A DNA stretch of 44,332 bases. Source: Escherichia phage EK99P-1. Where the stretch lies: sequence record NC_024783.1, one strand, 5' to 3'. The notes beneath the pieces were generated by a model. It had not been told where the DNA came from. It saw only the letters and a program-made list of their open reading frames with translations, and did no database searches. The translations under genes were made by a program, and so were the position numbers. This document shows positions 5,066 through 44,332 of this stretch, piece after piece; the stretch's first letter is position 1, and each line of letters starts with the position of its first letter.

Positions 5066-5080
5066 TGGCCCCCTTTTATT
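5055..5080 (+). terminator. rho-independent terminator after Rz1
   Basis: GGGGGCC-gtaat-GGCCCCC hairpin followed by TTTTATT, between convergent genes. Confidence 0.6.
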
Positions 5081-5843
5081 AGCGCGGAATACCGCAGATT
5101 TCGTTTAACGTCTTCACGTCCAGTGCCACCGCCGTGGACTTCGGCTTGTCCGGGTATGGAATAAACTGTTCCACTTCAGGCCACGCCTTGATCAGCTTCT
5201 TATCGGTATTGTGCATATCCAGCACGCCGGTCACAGTCAGCTTGAATGCGTCATACTTCGCACGCAACTCGCGGCGGGCCTTGTCGTTACGGTCCAGGCG
5301 CTTGCAGAAATCATGGTCCGCCGGGTAGTCTATACGACCGCATGACTTATATATCGGCAGCGCTTTCCCATCCTCGTCCACTTCGCACACAGAAGCCAGC
5401 ATTACTTCTTCGTACCCTGGTACAATATCGCCGAGATCTGGAGATAGCGTATTCATGTATTTATATTCCCAGTATCCGCGATGTACTCGGTATTGTCGTC
5501 CGTCACCGCTCAATGACAGTGTGCGCACATTTCCGCCCGCGTTGATTTCGAAAGTGGCGTCGTAAACGCTGCCGATGCCTTTTGGGCGGTCAGCATTATA
5601 TCTATACGTCGCCTTGTTGGTGTATACGCTTACTCCGTACATCTGCGACGGGTCATCGCCGATTGCTTTAATGCGCGCGAGTAGCTCGGCGAAAGTGCGA
5701 ATGCCTTCCGGCATACAGTCCAGCGTAATGGCGTACGCCAGGTCGCGCGAGTCCATCATGATGGATTTGGCTTCGGTCGCGATTTCATGGTCGCGCAGGA
5801 TGTTAGCCAGAATCTGGTTTTTAATGTCTTTCGTCAGTCTCAT
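5079..5843 (-). CDS. hypothetical protein (minus-strand moron in head module)
   Basis: 254 aa from the ATG at 5843 (RBS AAAGAGGA). Opposite strand to all flanking structural genes. No family recognised by eye. Confidence 0.6.
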   Translation of the reverse strand: MRLTKDIKNQILANILRDHEIATEAKSIMMDSRDLAYAITLDCMPEGIRTFAELLARIKAIGDDPSQMYGVSVYTNKATYRYNADRPKGIGSVYDATFEINAGGNVRTLSLSGDGRQYRVHRGYWEYKYMNTLSPDLGDIVPGYEEVMLASVCEVDEDGKALPIYKSCGRIDYPADHDFCKRLDRNDKARRELRAKYDAFKLTVTGVLDMHNTDKKLIKAWPEVEQFIPYPDKPKSTAVALDVKTLNEICGIPR

Positions 5844-5857
5844 TTGTGTGTCCTCTT

Positions 5858-6019
5858 TTAGTGGTTGTATAATTCGCCGCGTGCGTCGGCATCTTCCATT
5901 TGGTGTAGTGCGTGTTTCTGGTCCTGGCAAGGAATCCAGCGTTCCTCTAATTTATGCCAGAAGTAAAACACCCCGTTATCCAGCTTAATCTCGGCAATAC
6001 CGTTATTGAAAGTTAGCAT
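5858..6019 (-). CDS. hypothetical small protein (first gene of moron)
   Basis: 53 aa from the internal ATG at 6019 with RBS GAGGG, immediately downstream of a promoter-like element. Confidence 0.45.
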   Translation of the reverse strand: MLTFNNGIAEIKLDNGVFYFWHKLEERWIPCQDQKHALHQMEDADARGELYNH

Positions 6020-24935: not shown

Positions 24936-24965
24936 ACTATAGTGCAACCAACCTATTGGTTGCAA
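24936..24965 (-). promoter_or_regulatory. putative promoter with palindromic box pair
   Basis: Minus strand: TTGCAA (-35), 18-nt spacer, TATAGT (-10). The perfect inverted repeat TGCAACCAA-cct-a-TTGGTTGCA spans the -35 and spacer. Confidence 0.45.
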
Positions 24966-25423
24966 GTGAATTTCGCAACATTTATCGCGTAAATTTTCGG
25001 GACCAAATCACCACACGCCCGACGAATTGCCGCGATGTTCTTCTCGCAATCTTCAATGATGACCAGTTCCGACACGTCCGCATAGCAGACCATTTTGAAC
25101 ACGGCGCACGCCTTAAACTCAGGCGGCGGGGTGTCGTCCAGCATGTGGCGCATAAACAACCGGCCTACCGGGAAGACCTCCAATTGCTCGGCGGTGGTGT
25201 CCCAGCATTCGCGCTGCCGGTTGGTCAGATACGCGATCTCGAAGCCTTGCTCTTTATACATGCGCAGTAGCGGCAGCATATCCATGTTCAGGTCTTCGCG
25301 GACGTGCGCCTTGTGCCACTTCGCCCAGAAGGTGGATTTAGTTTTTATGCCCGGCACCAGGTCGGCGCGCGCATCGCTTGACCCATTAATAACGCCATCC
25401 AGATCACAAATCAGTAATTTCAT
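24953..25423 (-). CDS. HAD-superfamily phosphatase / nucleotidase-like protein
   Basis: 156 aa. N-terminal LICDLDGV matches HAD motif I (DxDG). Confidence 0.6.
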   Translation of the reverse strand: MKLLICDLDGVINGSSDARADLVPGIKTKSTFWAKWHKAHVREDLNMDMLPLLRMYKEQGFEIAYLTNRQRECWDTTAEQLEVFPVGRLFMRHMLDDTPPPEFKACAVFKMVCYADVSELVIIEDCEKNIAAIRRACGDLVPKIYAINVAKFTCNQ

Positions 25424-25653: not shown

Positions 25654-26110
25654 TCTCGCTCATTATTTCAATTTGTGCGCTGCCGCTGGGCGGCGCTTCG
25701 TCAAAGATTATCAACTGCTGGCACTTGTTATTGCTCGGCCCGACTTCACCGGTTACAGCGTGTATAAATCGGATACGCCAGTCCAGAAGAATTATCAGGT
25801 TTGCAGTCTTCCGGGCCAGCTTTGCCCACTTCGTCGACGTGTCCTGATTCAGCAGCATGACGGTCCGGCGTCCGTGCGCTGCGCACTTGACCCACGGCAG
25901 CGGATCGGAATACGGCGGGTTGCACCACTTCCACCCTTTCAACTCAGACCAGTCCGCATCGAGCGCGCTGTGCTCTGCCGTGAAGTAACGCGGTAGCAGG
26001 TGGTTGGTGTCGCTTGCCGCCATATCGTAACGGAATCGGTACTTACGGCGCAGCGGTTTAAATAAAGCTGGCGGCGTGCGCCAGCTATCTTTTTGCTCAC
26101 TCTTCTGCAT
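25625..26110 (-). CDS. DNA N6-adenine methyltransferase (small phage Dam type)
   Basis: 161 aa with WRTPPALF and catalytic NPPY motifs. Confidence 0.8.
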   Translation of the reverse strand: MQKSEQKDSWRTPPALFKPLRRKYRFRYDMAASDTNHLLPRYFTAEHSALDADWSELKGWKWCNPPYSDPLPWVKCAAHGRRTVMLLNQDTSTKWAKLARKTANLIILLDWRIRFIHAVTGEVGPSNNKCQQLIIFDEAPPSGSAQIEIMSESELHEYLNR

Positions 26111-26555
26111 GATCTGGATCTATCGCGTACAGGGCAATTTTCTTATTACTGTTTAGAACGCGTTGCACGCGCTTTGATTCCTCGGTGCCGAGTGGTCGGC
26201 AGTCGGAGTAGTAAGACCCGTTCCCTCGCCACGCAACCAGCACCAGGTCTTTCCGGTCAATCTTAGACTGGCGGCCCTTCGGACGCACGTACTCCTCGGC
26301 CCGTTTGCAATGTTCACGCAAACCATCGGCAGTGATGCGGTTTAGTGCAACGCTGGTGGTGTATCCGGTGCGCTGCATAATCCCCATCAATTCGAATAGC
26401 AGTTCGAAGCGCTCCTCTAGCTCCTGGCGCACTTTCTTCTCCCCTTCATATAGCGTCTGGTTGGTGTCCGCCAACGCGTTCGCACGTTCGGCCTGTTCGC
26501 GGGCTTCGAGGCATTGCGCGGCCCAGTAGTTTTTCTCTTCTTGTAAAATTTTCAT
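26097..26555 (-). CDS. hypothetical protein
   Basis: 152 aa, charged coiled-coil-like N-terminus. Confidence 0.45.
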   Translation of the reverse strand: MKILQEEKNYWAAQCLEAREQAERANALADTNQTLYEGEKKVRQELEERFELLFELMGIMQRTGYTTSVALNRITADGLREHCKRAEEYVRPKGRQSKIDRKDLVLVAWRGNGSYYSDCRPLGTEESKRVQRVLNSNKKIALYAIDPDHAEE

Positions 26556-32605: not shown

Positions 32606-33331
32606 TTAACGGCGGCGACGTTTACGCGGTGCTTTGTCTTCGTCGTCGTCGTCCTCATCTTCGTCATCGCGTGGCTTACGACGTTTACGAGGTTTTTTAT
32701 CTTCATCATCGTCATCGCGACGTTTTGACTTTTTGGACTTGCGCGGCTTGTCATCTTCATCATCGTCGCCCAGGTCCTCGTCTGAGCAAGAAGACCCGCC
32801 ACCTCCGAAGGCTTCGCCGTCTTCACGGAATCGCAGACCCAGCAAGCCAGCCCCGAGGCCCTTGCCGTTGGTATTGTTCCATGCCCAAATATCAAGGGAC
32901 ACGTTGCAATAACAACCGGAGTAGATCTCCTGGCCTTCAATCTCGTCGCCTTCTACGGTCAGACCTTGTTCAGTCTGCTTCTCGCCGAGTGACGTTTGAA
33001 TGATAGGCTGTTTGAACGATTTGGCGTTGATATACAACATGCCTTCGAATTCTTCTGTCACTTCGTCGCGCTCGTCACCGTCGCGAACTGCGCATTCCTT
33101 AGAATCCTGGGCGTAGTGGCGGTCCATCCACTTATCGGCATTCTTCTCGGATTTCAGCTTATCGGTGAGCACTGCGCGCGCTGCCGCTTCCACTTTGTCC
33201 ACCTGCGGATCTTCTTTATCCAGAAGAATCACGGCACGGTATGCCGGTTTTTGTCCATCCTGTTTAGGGGTATCACGTTCCCAGATTTTCAGGAAGCATA
33301 CGCGCACATTTTTCAGGTTGACTTTAGCCAT
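32606..33331 (-). CDS. ssDNA-binding-like protein (DUF2815-like) with hyper-charged C-terminal tail
   Basis: Start taken at the ATG at 33331 (MAKVNLKNV, RBS GAGGA). C-terminal ~60 aa alternate D/E blocks with K/R blocks. Confidence 0.5.
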   Translation of the reverse strand: MAKVNLKNVRVCFLKIWERDTPKQDGQKPAYRAVILLDKEDPQVDKVEAAARAVLTDKLKSEKNADKWMDRHYAQDSKECAVRDGDERDEVTEEFEGMLYINAKSFKQPIIQTSLGEKQTEQGLTVEGDEIEGQEIYSGCYCNVSLDIWAWNNTNGKGLGAGLLGLRFREDGEAFGGGGSSCSDEDLGDDDEDDKPRKSKKSKRRDDDDEDKKPRKRRKPRDDEDEDDDDEDKAPRKRRRR

Positions 33332-33421
33332 TTTCCAATTCCTCATTTTCACATGTATCGGGGTTATTGGAAGCCACCCCGTTCGGCTTGGTTGCTAATC
33401 TACTTGGTTGCGCCTGAGCGG

Positions 33422-33664
33422 TCAAGCATTTTCGTTAAAAAGATTTCGGGTAACGTAGTTGGTAGCGTTATCGATCCAGCTTAACGGCGGGCGGTCGATG
33501 TTCTTCTTCACCCAGTCGACGGCAGCGTCACTATACCCGTCATCAAGCCAGCGGGTTGGATGGCGAATCATCCACGCCACCATTAACACGCCTTGCACGC
33601 AATGCAGGATAAAGCCCAGCGCGCCGAGCAAAAACATCAATAAGATTGCGAATACTTTATTCAT
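33422..33664 (-). CDS. small membrane protein
   Basis: 80 aa with two hydrophobic helices (ILLMFLLGALGFIL, GVLMVAWMI). Confidence 0.45.
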   Translation of the reverse strand: MNKVFAILLMFLLGALGFILHCVQGVLMVAWMIRHPTRWLDDGYSDAAVDWVKKNIDRPPLSWIDNATNYVTRNLFNENA

Positions 33665-35087
33665 TGCTTAAGTCCTCGTCAGTAGCTTCCGACCACGCAG
33701 GGCGCGGGTCGTCGATTGGGGCTAACACCGGTTTGGCAGGTGCGCGCGTGATTTTATCACACAGCTTAGCCCACACTTTCGGTTTTTCGTCCTTCAGTAC
33801 CTTCTCGGCATCCGTAGGGCTGAGCAATGTTTCTTTGTACATCACATCGCGCTTGATCCGGGCCTTCGTGAAGATTTCAATCACTTCGCTCTCGTCCGCC
33901 CACTTGCGGATCCCTTCCTTACCGGCAACCATCTTGAGGCCCAGCGATTCGCCGTCGCCCGCCATTACCGCCTTAAATACCGCGGACTCGATAGCTTTGA
34001 TGTGCTGGCGCATTGCGTCCAGGCCTTCATAAGCCTTGCGCAGTTCAGCCGCGCTCATAGCGCCGGGGGCCGCTTCTTTCTTGCCACGCTTCGCACGTCG
34101 CGCCGCCTTCCTGGCTTCACGCGCCATATTGCGATCGTGGTTGGCGCATTCTTCCTCGGTCGCAATAATCACGTCGTCGCCCAGGTCTTCGTCAGTTGCC
34201 GTGGTTGGTGTCATCGTATCGATTGCGGCCTTCGCGCGGGCACTACACTGATCCGCAAATCGGCACCACTGACACGCATCAACGCTGGGCCGGAAGTCTG
34301 CGCGAGTGAGTCCCTTCTTGCCTCGGGAATATGCCTCCAGTGCGGAAATAGCGCGCTTGGATGCAAACTTCGCGAATATCTCCAGTGCTTCTACCGAAAT
34401 ATCCCACTCCGACGCCCCGCCGCAATACGGCTGGAAGATAACCAGGCGAACGGTCGTAATGTCGTACATAGTTTGCAGCTTGCGCAGCAGGCCGAGCGCG
34501 TACAACATAAGCTGTTTGTTCTCTTTCGCCTCGACCTTATGCCGCCCGGTCTTCAGGTCGCCAACAATCAGCATGTACGTTCCATCGGTCTTTTTCATGA
34601 CCATGACCATATCGGCAGTACCGAACGTTTTAATCCGGTTGCCGTCGATCTCGTAGCCTGAGTGAAGGACGCGGGTCAGATCGGCGCGCATCTCAAGCTG
34701 GACAAACTCCGCCACCTCGAGGAGTGGTCGCCAGTGGTCGATGTACGCGTCGCACTGTTTCACCATGTCGTCATTGACCAGTACGCCGCCTTTCGGCGCT
34801 TTCGGATGTGCCTTCACTGGCCCCTTGCCTTCGTTCTCGACGTAGCTCCCTTTATACGTCTTTGCGGTTATCAGCTTTTCACCGGCGATAATGCGGTTTA
34901 GCACCACTTCCGATACGGTGTGCATACTCGTACCGTTAATCGCGGCTTGCCCGGATTCGTTCGGGATATCTTTTTCTACCACCAGGGCGGCAGGGCAACC
35001 CATCCATTTTTTAGCACCGGATGGCCCGAGTAATGAGTGTTCCGTATTGCTGCCGGATTGCGTCTTACGTTTTGGTTTAATCGCCAT
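33657..35087 (-). CDS. PD-(D/E)XK exonuclease-like protein (Cas4-like / DUF2800-like) with C-terminal Cys cluster
   Basis: 476 aa. N-terminal LLGPSGAKKWMGCPA pattern and CQWCRFADQCS cysteine cluster. Confidence 0.5.
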   Translation of the reverse strand: MAIKPKRKTQSGSNTEHSLLGPSGAKKWMGCPAALVVEKDIPNESGQAAINGTSMHTVSEVVLNRIIAGEKLITAKTYKGSYVENEGKGPVKAHPKAPKGGVLVNDDMVKQCDAYIDHWRPLLEVAEFVQLEMRADLTRVLHSGYEIDGNRIKTFGTADMVMVMKKTDGTYMLIVGDLKTGRHKVEAKENKQLMLYALGLLRKLQTMYDITTVRLVIFQPYCGGASEWDISVEALEIFAKFASKRAISALEAYSRGKKGLTRADFRPSVDACQWCRFADQCSARAKAAIDTMTPTTATDEDLGDDVIIATEEECANHDRNMAREARKAARRAKRGKKEAAPGAMSAAELRKAYEGLDAMRQHIKAIESAVFKAVMAGDGESLGLKMVAGKEGIRKWADESEVIEIFTKARIKRDVMYKETLLSPTDAEKVLKDEKPKVWAKLCDKITRAPAKPVLAPIDDPRPAWSEATDEDLSNE

Positions 35088-42688: not shown

Positions 42689-42714
42689 AAGCCCGGTTAA
42701 TTCCGGGCTTTTTA
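42689..42714 (+). terminator. rho-independent terminator after the lysis genes
   Basis: AAGCCCGG-ttaatt-CCGGGCTT followed by TTTTT. Confidence 0.65.
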
Positions 42715-42776: not shown

Positions 42777-43004
42777 ATGGAACCTGAATTAATCTGCATG
42801 GTCATCTGTCATGAATCTGCTACGCGCGCCGTAATCACGTATCTGGAATATGGTGTTTTCCTGATTGACGATAAGTATTACGTTATGAATGAGCACGGGA
42901 ACTGGACTGAAGTATTCAAGTTTAGCGATACGCGCGGTGTATGGATAACTATCGACGGCATAAGCGCCGCTTTCACTGAGATTGAGTTACACTATGGCAC
43001 GTAA
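42777..43004 (+). CDS. hypothetical protein
   Basis: 75 aa, RBS GAGAGGAG, preceded by TTGCAACCAA and TATACTGCGACCAAT elements. Confidence 0.5.
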   Translation: MEPELICMVICHESATRAVITYLEYGVFLIDDKYYVMNEHGNWTEVFKFSDTRGVWITIDGISAAFTEIELHYGT

Positions 43005-43135
43005 AGATATTTGGGTATTAGCGATCTGGACCACCGCGGCTTTTATCGGCATGGTTATTTGCGAATTGATATAGCCCGCCGCCATACGGACCGTGGTATA
43101 TTGTCCACGGTCCACTAATCAGGAATTAATTAAAT

Positions 43136-44278
43136 ATGCACCCGCAAACTAAAATTACCGATGAGCAATTGATCGCAGAAATCCAGGCAGGGACTACAGT
43201 TAAAGAGATTGCGAAGAAATACGGGATTGCCCTACGCAATGTCTATATGCGTAAAGCCCGCCTGTCGAAAAAAGGCATTGGACACGGCAACGATGCCGTA
43301 ATCCGCAAGCGCGTTGCCGACGGCTTTGGGGTTAAGCGCGTATCGGCCCTGGTGCGCGGCAATGGTGAAGAGGTCATGTCGTGGGTCATCACTGAGCAGG
43401 ACAAAGAGCGCCAACTCGAAGCCATGCGCGCTGTTGTCGATGGTATGAACAGCGAAATCACACCGGCAGCGCCAGTAAAAGCCCCGCCAGTACCGATCCA
43501 GGCGCTCGACTTGCTCAACCTGTATACTGTGTCAGACTTCCACCTGGGCATGTTGGCATGGGGTGAGGAGACTGGCGAAGACTGGGATATGGCGATCGCC
43601 GAAGACCTGTTCTACCGCTGGTTTGTCGAAGCCTTCGCACGCGCCCCGGACGCAGGCACTGCCGTAATTAATATTCTCGGTGATATGGCGCACTTTGATA
43701 GCCTCGATGCTGTCACTCCGGCAAGTGGTCACATACTGGACGCTGACACCCGCTACCAGAAACTGGTCCGATACATGATTCGCATGGTGCGCAACGTAGT
43801 AGAACTGGCGCTGCAAAAACACCACAAAGTAAAACTGCTAATCGTCCAGGGAAATCATGACGAGTCGGGTATGATTTGGCTGGCGGAGATGTTCAATACT
43901 CTGTACGAGAACGAGCCGCGCGTCGATGTGGATACGTCCCCGGACGTCTACAAAATGGTGCAGCACGGCAAGACCACGCTATTCTTCCACCACGGGCACA
44001 AAGCGCGATTCGATGCTATCGAGCAGGTTATGATTTCTAAATTCAGACAGGCTTTCGGGTCCAGTGAGTACAGCTACGCGCATGTCGGTCACTTGCACCA
44101 CCAGAAGATTGTAGAATCCCGTAACATGATTGTTGAACAGCACAGGACGCTTGCCGCGAAAGACGCATATGCAAGCCGCGGCGGTTGGATGTCCGGTCGT
44201 AGTGCCAACGTCATCACATACAGCGCCAATTACGGCGAAGTGGCGCGCTTAACCATTAGCCCGGAAATGTTGAAGTAA
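43136..44278 (+). CDS. HTH-domain / calcineurin-like metallophosphoesterase fusion protein
   Basis: 380 aa. N-terminal HTH-like TVKEIAKKYGIALRNVYMRKARL. Phosphoesterase motifs DFHLG, GDMAHFD, GNHDE, HHGH, GHLHH. Confidence 0.65.
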   Translation: MHPQTKITDEQLIAEIQAGTTVKEIAKKYGIALRNVYMRKARLSKKGIGHGNDAVIRKRVADGFGVKRVSALVRGNGEEVMSWVITEQDKERQLEAMRAVVDGMNSEITPAAPVKAPPVPIQALDLLNLYTVSDFHLGMLAWGEETGEDWDMAIAEDLFYRWFVEAFARAPDAGTAVINILGDMAHFDSLDAVTPASGHILDADTRYQKLVRYMIRMVRNVVELALQKHHKVKLLIVQGNHDESGMIWLAEMFNTLYENEPRVDVDTSPDVYKMVQHGKTTLFFHHGHKARFDAIEQVMISKFRQAFGSSEYSYAHVGHLHHQKIVESRNMIVEQHRTLAAKDAYASRGGWMSGRSANVITYSANYGEVARLTISPEMLK

Positions 44279-44295: not shown

Positions 44296-44326
44296 CCCAG
44301 CCTGCCGATTTGGTGGGCTTTTTTGT
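44296..44326 (+). terminator. putative terminator at window end
   Basis: Imperfect GC-rich hairpin followed by CTTTTTTG. Confidence 0.4.
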
Positions 44327-44332
44327 GCCTGT

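Follow-up and report, generated by a model that had tools for sequence, protein, structure and literature searches.

The helix-turn-helix metallophosphoesterase of Escherichia phage EK99P-1 belongs to the T1 gp16 family and may act on DNA

Among experimentally studied systems, the closest analogs of the gene examined here are solo phage metallophosphoesterases (MPEs) tied to the destruction of host DNA. In phage T5, A1 is the sole pre-early gene that is both necessary and sufficient for host DNA degradation, and its product is a predicted metallo-phosphatase resembling double-strand-break repair and proofreading nucleases (bioRxiv 10.64898/2026.04.02.716235). Gp48 of mycobacteriophage A10ZJ24, an MPE homologous to Bxb1 gp47, acts in vitro as a phosphodiesterase and a DNase; it is toxic and breaks down the host genome early in infection (PMC12287305). 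Here, we analyzed a 44,332-bp stretch of DNA from Escherichia phage EK99P-1 (NC_024783.1; hereafter the window), which is a complete Dhillonvirus-type E. coli siphophage genome. We focused on the coding sequence at 43136–44278 (+), whose product combines an N-terminal helix-turn-helix (HTH) with an MPE domain and belongs to the T1 gp16 / PHROG 704 family.

The open reading frame (ORF) begins with ATG, encodes 380 amino acids, and is preceded by an AGGA at 43121–43124, 11 nt 5′ of the start codon. Using an alignment of 109 diverse homologs, AlphaFold returned a model with a mean predicted local distance difference test (pLDDT) score of 92.4 and a predicted TM-score (pTM) of 0.79; the single-sequence model (pLDDT 43) was unusable. 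The chain opens with a three-helix HTH (residues 9–45; 43160–43270, +) of the LuxR/GerE or sigma-70 region 4 type, with helices at residues 9–17, 22–29, and 33–45 modeled at pLDDT 94–96, followed by a low-confidence linker (residues 46–60). Searched alone, the EK99P-1 protein gave HTH Pfam matches below threshold at residues 8–48 (GerE, E 0.015; HTH_28, E 0.029; HTH_7). Across the family, Sigma70_r4_2 was matched by 13 members (best E 1.5e-9), GerE by 7 (best E 2.4e-8), HTH_1 by 22, and HTH_8, HTH_23, and HTH_28 by 9–12 members each. Between the HTH and the catalytic domain lies a β-hairpin followed by a helix (residues 64–107; 43325–43456, +; strands 64–73 and 79–88, helix 90–107). Within this module, Gly77 and Trp83 are conserved in at least 90% of the 109 sequences and are invariant in a 12-sequence alignment.

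The MPE catalytic domain spans residues 121–380 (43496–44275, +) and displays the two-metal motif set on a β-sandwich fold, the hallmarks of the superfamily. The putative metal ligands and their motif partners are D134-x-H136 (DxH, 43535–43543), G182-D183 (GD, 43679–43684), N240-H241-D242 (GNHD, 43850–43861), H286 (43991–43993), and G318-H319-x-H321 (GHxH, 44087–44098), and His186 completes a GDxxH motif. Nine of these positions (D134, H136, G182, D183, N240, H241, H286, G318, and H321) are invariant across the 109 homologs; H186, D188, D242, H285, H288, and H319 are conserved in at least 90%. The Pfam gathering scores were nevertheless narrowly missed for Metallophos (20.7 versus 21.5 bits) and missed by more for Metallophos_2 (22.8 versus 27), and only 27 and 18 of the 109 members, respectively, match these models at E < 0.01. 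These sub-threshold scores indicate a divergent branch of the MPE superfamily, with membership resting on the motifs and the fold. The first-pass annotation, made from the DNA letters alone, had described an HTH-like module fused to a complete set of calcineurin-like phosphoesterase motifs. That description stands: the family-wide HTH matches and the confident three-helix model account for the first half and the full motif set for the second, with no loss of metal-ligand residues on alignment. The protein is very probably an active MPE carrying an HTH.

The gene is certainly genuine. Close relatives differ by 4–6% in DNA and by 0.5–3% in protein, and the lower protein divergence points to purifying selection. 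It is also no discovery in itself, as hundreds of deposited phage genomes already include annotated, near-identical proteins. Full-length homologs were found by tblastn in 2061 phage records, and an exhaustive HMMER search, clustered at 50% identity, returned 4679 clusters, 1133 of them with E < 1e-30 and with lengths of 370–420 amino acids in almost every case. The match to PHROG 704 (“DNA repair exonuclease”) runs from residue 5 to 380 against profile positions 2–390 of 390 (E 1.4e-161), and phage T1 gp16 (ST16) is a full-length homolog with 45% identity over 377 amino acids. GenBank labels range from hypothetical protein, phosphoesterase, and calcineurin-like phosphoesterase superfamily domain protein to DNA repair exonuclease and winged helix-turn-helix domain-containing protein. 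A T1 gp16-type gene is present in 508 of 522 Drexlerviridae (PMC13164509), and the MPE gene occurs in all of the Dhillonvirus matches. The EK99P-1 protein is therefore a member of an abundant, catalogued family, encoded by a core gene in several siphophage lineages, rather than a new protein. Searches of NCBIfam and PADLOC gave no meaningful match; PADLOC is uninformative on anti-defense functions, as its library consists of defense proteins.

Comparison of the modeled MPE domain with known structures placed nucleases at the top of the ranking. The highest scores were obtained with the PolD DP1 proofreading exonuclease (15.5), Staphylococcus aureus SbcD (15.0), and Thermotoga maritima Mre11 (15.0), followed by LpxH (14.5), MJ0936 (14.1), Pyrococcus furiosus Mre11 (13.9), and the Pol delta B-subunit (13.5). 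Lower scores were recorded for GpdQ (12.5), Rv0805 (12.4), the protein phosphatase PP5 (9.5), and a Pseudomonas putida nuclease MPE (9.3). Foldseek gave similar E-values (1e-8 to 1e-7) for Mre11, DP1, Rv0805, and GpdQ, with TM-scores of just 0.3–0.46. The MPE fold is thus unambiguous, and the lean towards nucleases is real yet small. DP1, the small subunit of archaeal DNA polymerase D, shares only 13% identity with the EK99P-1 protein and has different N-terminal domains; the PolD large subunit is absent from EK99P-1, whose polymerase belongs to family A. When the family profile was searched against all PDB sequences, it retrieved LuxR/GerE-type HTH domains (E 0.02–0.4) and a sole MPE, T. maritima Mre11/SbcD, as a weak match (E 0.49, 12.6 bits). 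From the BFVD viral structure library came only uncharacterized phage MPEs and proteins auto-annotated as “DNA polymerase II small subunit.” For structural biology, the sub-family is a new one. Separately, phmmer matches to designed armadillo-repeat proteins were discarded as repeat-summed artefacts with no individually significant domain.

We hold with middling confidence that the EK99P-1 protein is a stand-alone, HTH-tethered, Mn2+/Mg2+-dependent phosphodiesterase of the T1 gp16 / PHROG 704 family that acts in phage DNA or nucleotide metabolism. In the proposed mechanism, two metal ions coordinated by D134, H136, D183, N240, H286, H319, and H321 would activate a water molecule to hydrolyze a phosphodiester bond, with the N-terminal HTH holding the enzyme on DNA. 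The 64–107 module may close over the active site, taking the place of a capping domain. That DNA is the substrate seems about evenly balanced; the MPE would then cut it alone as a DNase, without a Rad50/SbcC-type ATPase. The likeliest role for such an enzyme would be the breakdown of host (or other non-phage) DNA, leading to host shut-off and nucleotide salvage, with DNA-end processing as the alternative. The dNMP kinase, HAD phosphatase, and MazG genes that neighbor the MPE gene in relatives would fit a role in converting DNA to nucleotides. We regard host-DNA degradation itself as a tentative assignment, less likely than not.

T5 A1 and the cluster A mycobacteriophage MPEs (A10ZJ24 Gp48; Bxb1 gp47 / L5 gp54) resemble the EK99P-1 protein in being solo phage MPEs, A1 likewise having no Rad50 partner. 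They differ from it in architecture. T5 A1 is longer (556 amino acids), has a far larger N-terminal region, and is encoded by a pre-early gene on first-step-transfer DNA, whereas the cluster A protein is a 255-residue, HTH-less enzyme in which motif I starts from residue 10. The Bxb1 gp47 record is annotated as a metallo-phosphoesterase only; the same protein is also the recombination directionality factor for the Bxb1 integrase. Several T5 A1 homologs of about 530 amino acids (P0343, P0345–P0347, P0349, P0373, and P0385) do carry N-terminal HTH Pfam domains (HTH_23, HTH_38, HTH_7, or the CENP-B N-terminal domain), which indicates that the HTH-MPE arrangement recurs.

In favor of the T5 precedent, the MPE regions of the EK99P-1 and T5 A1 families align colinearly by hhalign through motifs III–VI and share NHD-x2-S-x-WL, with a probability of just 46% (E 2e-4); the full-length comparison matched the N-terminal HTH only (probability 23%), and the Bxb1 gp47/Gp48 family reached 8%. 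Several observations weigh against the proposed role. Profile-profile similarity to T5 A1 or Bxb1 gp47/Gp48 is not significant beyond the superfamily level, and by sequence these proteins rank as analogs and relatives within the superfamily rather than as demonstrated members of one family. T1 gp16 / PHROG 704 members also turn up in Mb-size contigs of species-representative bacterial genomes, that is, in prophages, and the idea that the family is confined to virulent phages was rejected on the strength of several such matches. Our literature search found no activity or phenotype for any T1 gp16 / PHROG 704 member; biochemical studies, escaper mutants, and essentiality screens were likewise sought for the family and not found, and we infer substrate and role. 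Finally, sigma-70-like and extended −10 matches were no commoner than in shuffled sequence. The only candidate promoter for the MPE gene is a weak extended −10-like element, TGGTATATT (43094–43102, +), 34 nt 5′ of the start codon; given the lack of enrichment over shuffles, we make no claim on expression timing.

To examine the genomic company of the family, we combined 80 viral-contig loci, retrieved with the 12-sequence alignment as query, with seven annotated phage records and reduced them to 32 loci of less than 70% mutual identity. Neighbors within four positions were clustered, and 144 neighbors within three genes were scanned against PHROG. The most frequent neighbor family was found in at most 4 of the 32 loci. 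The commonest named families were HNH endonucleases, a HAD “polynucleotide-kinase-like” phosphatase, a dATP/dGTP pyrophosphohydrolase (MazG-type), and an ATP-dependent ligase, with an exonuclease, dNMP kinase, endolysin, and holin also recurring (polynucleotide-kinase-like 3, ligase 2, dNMP kinase 2). Neither a terminase nor an SbcC/Rad50-like family was among the top 25 neighbor PHROG families within three genes of the MPE gene in these loci. At the border of the lysis module, the MPE gene keeps company with genes for DNA and nucleotide metabolism, and the MPE has no obligatory partner protein.

Individual loci illustrate this variety. In T1, the MPE gene comes after dam and two small ORFs and ahead of an HNH gene and the lysis cassette; a terminator of its own is annotated, and terS is 32 kb away. 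The Webervirus gene is followed by a HAD hydrolase, a dNMP kinase, and lysis genes; in a Jersey-like Salmonella phage, the MPE gene lies among tail genes with an HNH gene and an anti-repressor. A Ruegeria phage carries it before a methyltransferase and a dNMP phosphatase. Campylobacter phages encode an HTH-less version, annotated as “T1 gp16-like,” just after DNA ligase and three genes 3′ of a Holliday-junction resolvase. Directly 5′ of the MPE gene are a RusA resolvase in a Stutzerimonas prophage and an endolysin in Phenylobacterium. Homologs of the HAD polynucleotide-kinase-like phosphatase (T1 ST64, phrog_415) lie directly 3′ of it in Kagunavirus-like loci (L012–L024) and also in L027, L037, and L043. 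In Vibrio phage pYD21-A, the MPE gene follows the lysis genes. The latter phage also encodes a NinI-like Ser/Thr phosphatase, another MPE (883–1545); because pYD21-A carries both types, the two are not redundant.

The first-pass annotation had placed the gene directly before terS across the ends of the window. We confirmed this by joining the window end to its start, which aligned without a gap to a contiguous stretch of phage vB_EcoS-UDS3lw in the order phosphoesterase gene, then terS; the window is accordingly a circular permutation opened just 5′ of terS. Between the two genes, however, lies a terminator-like hairpin with a T-run (44299–44326, +; 44299–44319 in the consensus scan; 9-bp stem, 5 GC pairs, TTTTTTGT tail), which is also kept in one relative. 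Upstream, the lysis cassette (two holin-like genes, a lysozyme, and a 55-codon ORF) ends in a bidirectional terminator-like hairpin (42689–42710) detected on both strands by consensus scanning. The MPE gene therefore adjoins terS yet appears to form its own short, terminator-bounded transcription unit outside the packaging operon. T1 gp16 is similar in the order of HTH, hairpin, and MPE and in being encoded by the last gene of a terminator-ended unit. The position differs, in that T1 and other Drexlerviridae have the gene before a (SH3/HNH)-holin-endolysin-spanin cassette, whereas EK99P-1 has it after the lysis cassette and before terS. Taken across the loci above, terS adjacency is a peculiarity of Dhillonvirus.

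Of the three roles that the first-pass annotation had listed as candidates (an Mre11/SbcD-like nuclease in DNA end processing or packaging, a protein phosphatase, and a phosphodiesterase that degrades a nucleotide second messenger), a nuclease is the best supported, with DP1, SbcD, and Mre11 as top structures, a DNA-binding-type HTH, and neighbors from DNA and nucleotide metabolism. The strict Mre11/SbcD version of that proposal does not hold. An end-processing nuclease of this type, serving recombination, concatemer processing, or headful packaging, would be expected to work with a Rad50/SbcC/gp46-like ATPase, and none was found among the window ORFs of at least 500 amino acids (portal, tape measure, tail tip, tail fiber, helicase, PolA, and primase-helicase) or among the top 25 neighbor families of the MPE gene in the 32 loci. 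In the AlphaFold model, the capping domain and the C-terminal Rad50-binding helices are absent; residue 380, the last of the chain, still falls within the MPE sandwich, and the additional domains all precede it. Mre11, SbcD, and T4 gp47 share 14–17% identity with the EK99P-1 protein, which carries an N-terminal HTH instead, and the SbcD profile match is the weak one given above, so that the resemblance is at most one of chemistry. The suggested link to packaging was not borne out either, given the intervening terminator and the location of the gene away from terS in T1, Webervirus, Jerseyvirus, Vibrio, Ruegeria, and Campylobacter phages. For recombination, the window encodes a DUF2800 PD-(D/E)XK exonuclease (33657–35087, −) beside a gp2.5-like single-stranded-DNA-binding/annealing protein (32606–33352, −), which together are probably the phage’s own recombination module, apart from the MPE. 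T1 likewise encodes RecE-like and Erf proteins besides gp16, and such separate exonuclease/annealase pairs suggest that the MPE is not the main recombination exonuclease. We consider an end-processing role of the Mre11/SbcD type unlikely.

A counter-defense phosphodiesterase, which would destroy a nucleotide second messenger (the cyclic oligonucleotides of CBASS, type III CRISPR, or Pycsar, or the signals of Thoeris), draws on the same superfamily chemistry, and Rv0805 and GpdQ are among the structural matches. In the structure comparison, nucleases outscore the phosphodiesterases, and it is not obvious what a small-molecule hydrolase would do with a conserved HTH of the DNA-binding type. The gene also persists as a core gene throughout whole phage families, whereas typical anti-defense genes are patchily distributed. 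To our knowledge, the known anti-signaling enzymes have other folds, Acb1 being a 2H enzyme and Apyc1 a metallo-β-lactamase. This part of the first-pass proposal is accordingly quite unlikely. In an end-healing role, the protein would be a 2′,3′-cyclic phosphodiesterase or 3′-phosphatase, comparable to the MPE module in bacterial Pnkp, and would partner with the HAD phosphatase or ligase of the phage to repair tRNA or DNA cut by host defense nucleases. In Kagunavirus-like loci and elsewhere, a HAD polynucleotide-kinase-like gene stands directly 3′ of the MPE gene, which would suit this reading, as would the recurrence of polynucleotide-kinase-like, ligase, and dNMP kinase families among the neighbors, in two or three instances each. 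PMC2190708 describes Clostridium thermocellum Pnkp and lambda phosphatase as MPEs with 2′,3′-cyclic phosphodiesterase activity. On balance, we judge end healing improbable. A Ser/Thr/Tyr protein phosphatase of the lambda-phosphatase (NinI) type, reprogramming host proteins, would belong to the same superfamily. Lambdoid phages place their MPE phosphatase between the replication and lysis modules, and the T1-type gene likewise lies just before the lysis cassette. The EK99P-1 MPE lacks the GDxHG, GDxVDRG, and GNHE motifs and the fold of the PPP protein phosphatases, making this reading highly improbable.

Returning to an HTH-tethered phosphodiesterase that acts on DNA, the hypothesis can be extended to the family. 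T1 degrades the host chromosome, as established in classical work. It is conceivable, if speculative, that destruction of the host chromosome in many siphophages, T1-like, Dhillonvirus, and Jersey-like phages among them, is the work of T1 gp16 / PHROG 704 proteins acting as HTH-guided DNases independent of Rad50. The family would then match T5 A1 in function and might be distantly related to it; the long-unassigned host-DNA-degradation function of T1 would be identified, and a widespread class of HTH-MPE host-takeover nucleases would be defined. Two methyltransferases encoded in the window could serve to mark phage DNA as self. The gene is among the most persistent non-structural genes of phage groups used therapeutically (Drexlerviridae, Dhillonvirus, Jerseyvirus, Kagunavirus, and Webervirus). 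Phages that destroy host DNA transduce less, and a host-DNA-degrading nuclease would therefore bear on transduction risk, as well as on host shut-off and nucleotide supply. Such an enzyme would also provide a compact, partner-free, DNA-targeted MPE to study beside T5 A1 and Gp48.

Further features of the locus concern its boundaries. The segment 42994–44332 is 94–96% identical in DNA to Dhillonvirus LF50P3, EC115, and SM_A8 and to about 150 further phages. Between the lysis-cassette terminator and the MPE gene lies a 72-codon ORF (42786–43004, +) that matches PHROG 16851 (unknown function) and has no Pfam match. Because the match to most Dhillonvirus relatives does not begin until 42994, this ORF is a variable insertion, present in a minority of phages (e.g., SP1 and 101114BS4). 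At the other end, an extended −10-like element, TGTTATAAT, spans the artificial junction of the window (44329–44332 joined to 1–5) and is missed when the window is scanned as a linear sequence. Its position, immediately past the MPE terminator and about 70 nt 5′ of terS, makes it a candidate promoter for the packaging and head genes, which form an operon.

Elsewhere in the window, some annotations merit comment. The product of 24953–25423 (−), which falls in the same PHROG family as T1 ST64 (phrog_415), is a PHROG “polynucleotide kinase,” as is the annotation of T1 ST64, yet it carries a HAD DxDG(V/T) motif and its matches are confined to the HAD acid-phosphatase family. Its counterpart in T4 Pnkp is the phosphatase half, and the kinase domain is absent. 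We had entertained the MPE as the missing 3′-phosphatase for a kinase-only enzyme of this kind and rejected the idea, since the window and T1 proteins both carry the HAD DxDG(T/V) motif and are thus phosphatases, not kinases. The 152-residue product of 26097–26555 (−) is assigned to PHROG 10530 (“DNA ligase”), has no Pfam match, and has a charged, coiled-coil-like N-terminal half; the ligase annotation looks doubtful. Lastly, an Nmad5 (“nucleotide modification associated domain 5”) protein (Pfam E 1.7e-57) is encoded at 5079–5930 (−), on the opposite strand within the head-morphogenesis block, and may point to modification of DNA or nucleotides by EK99P-1.

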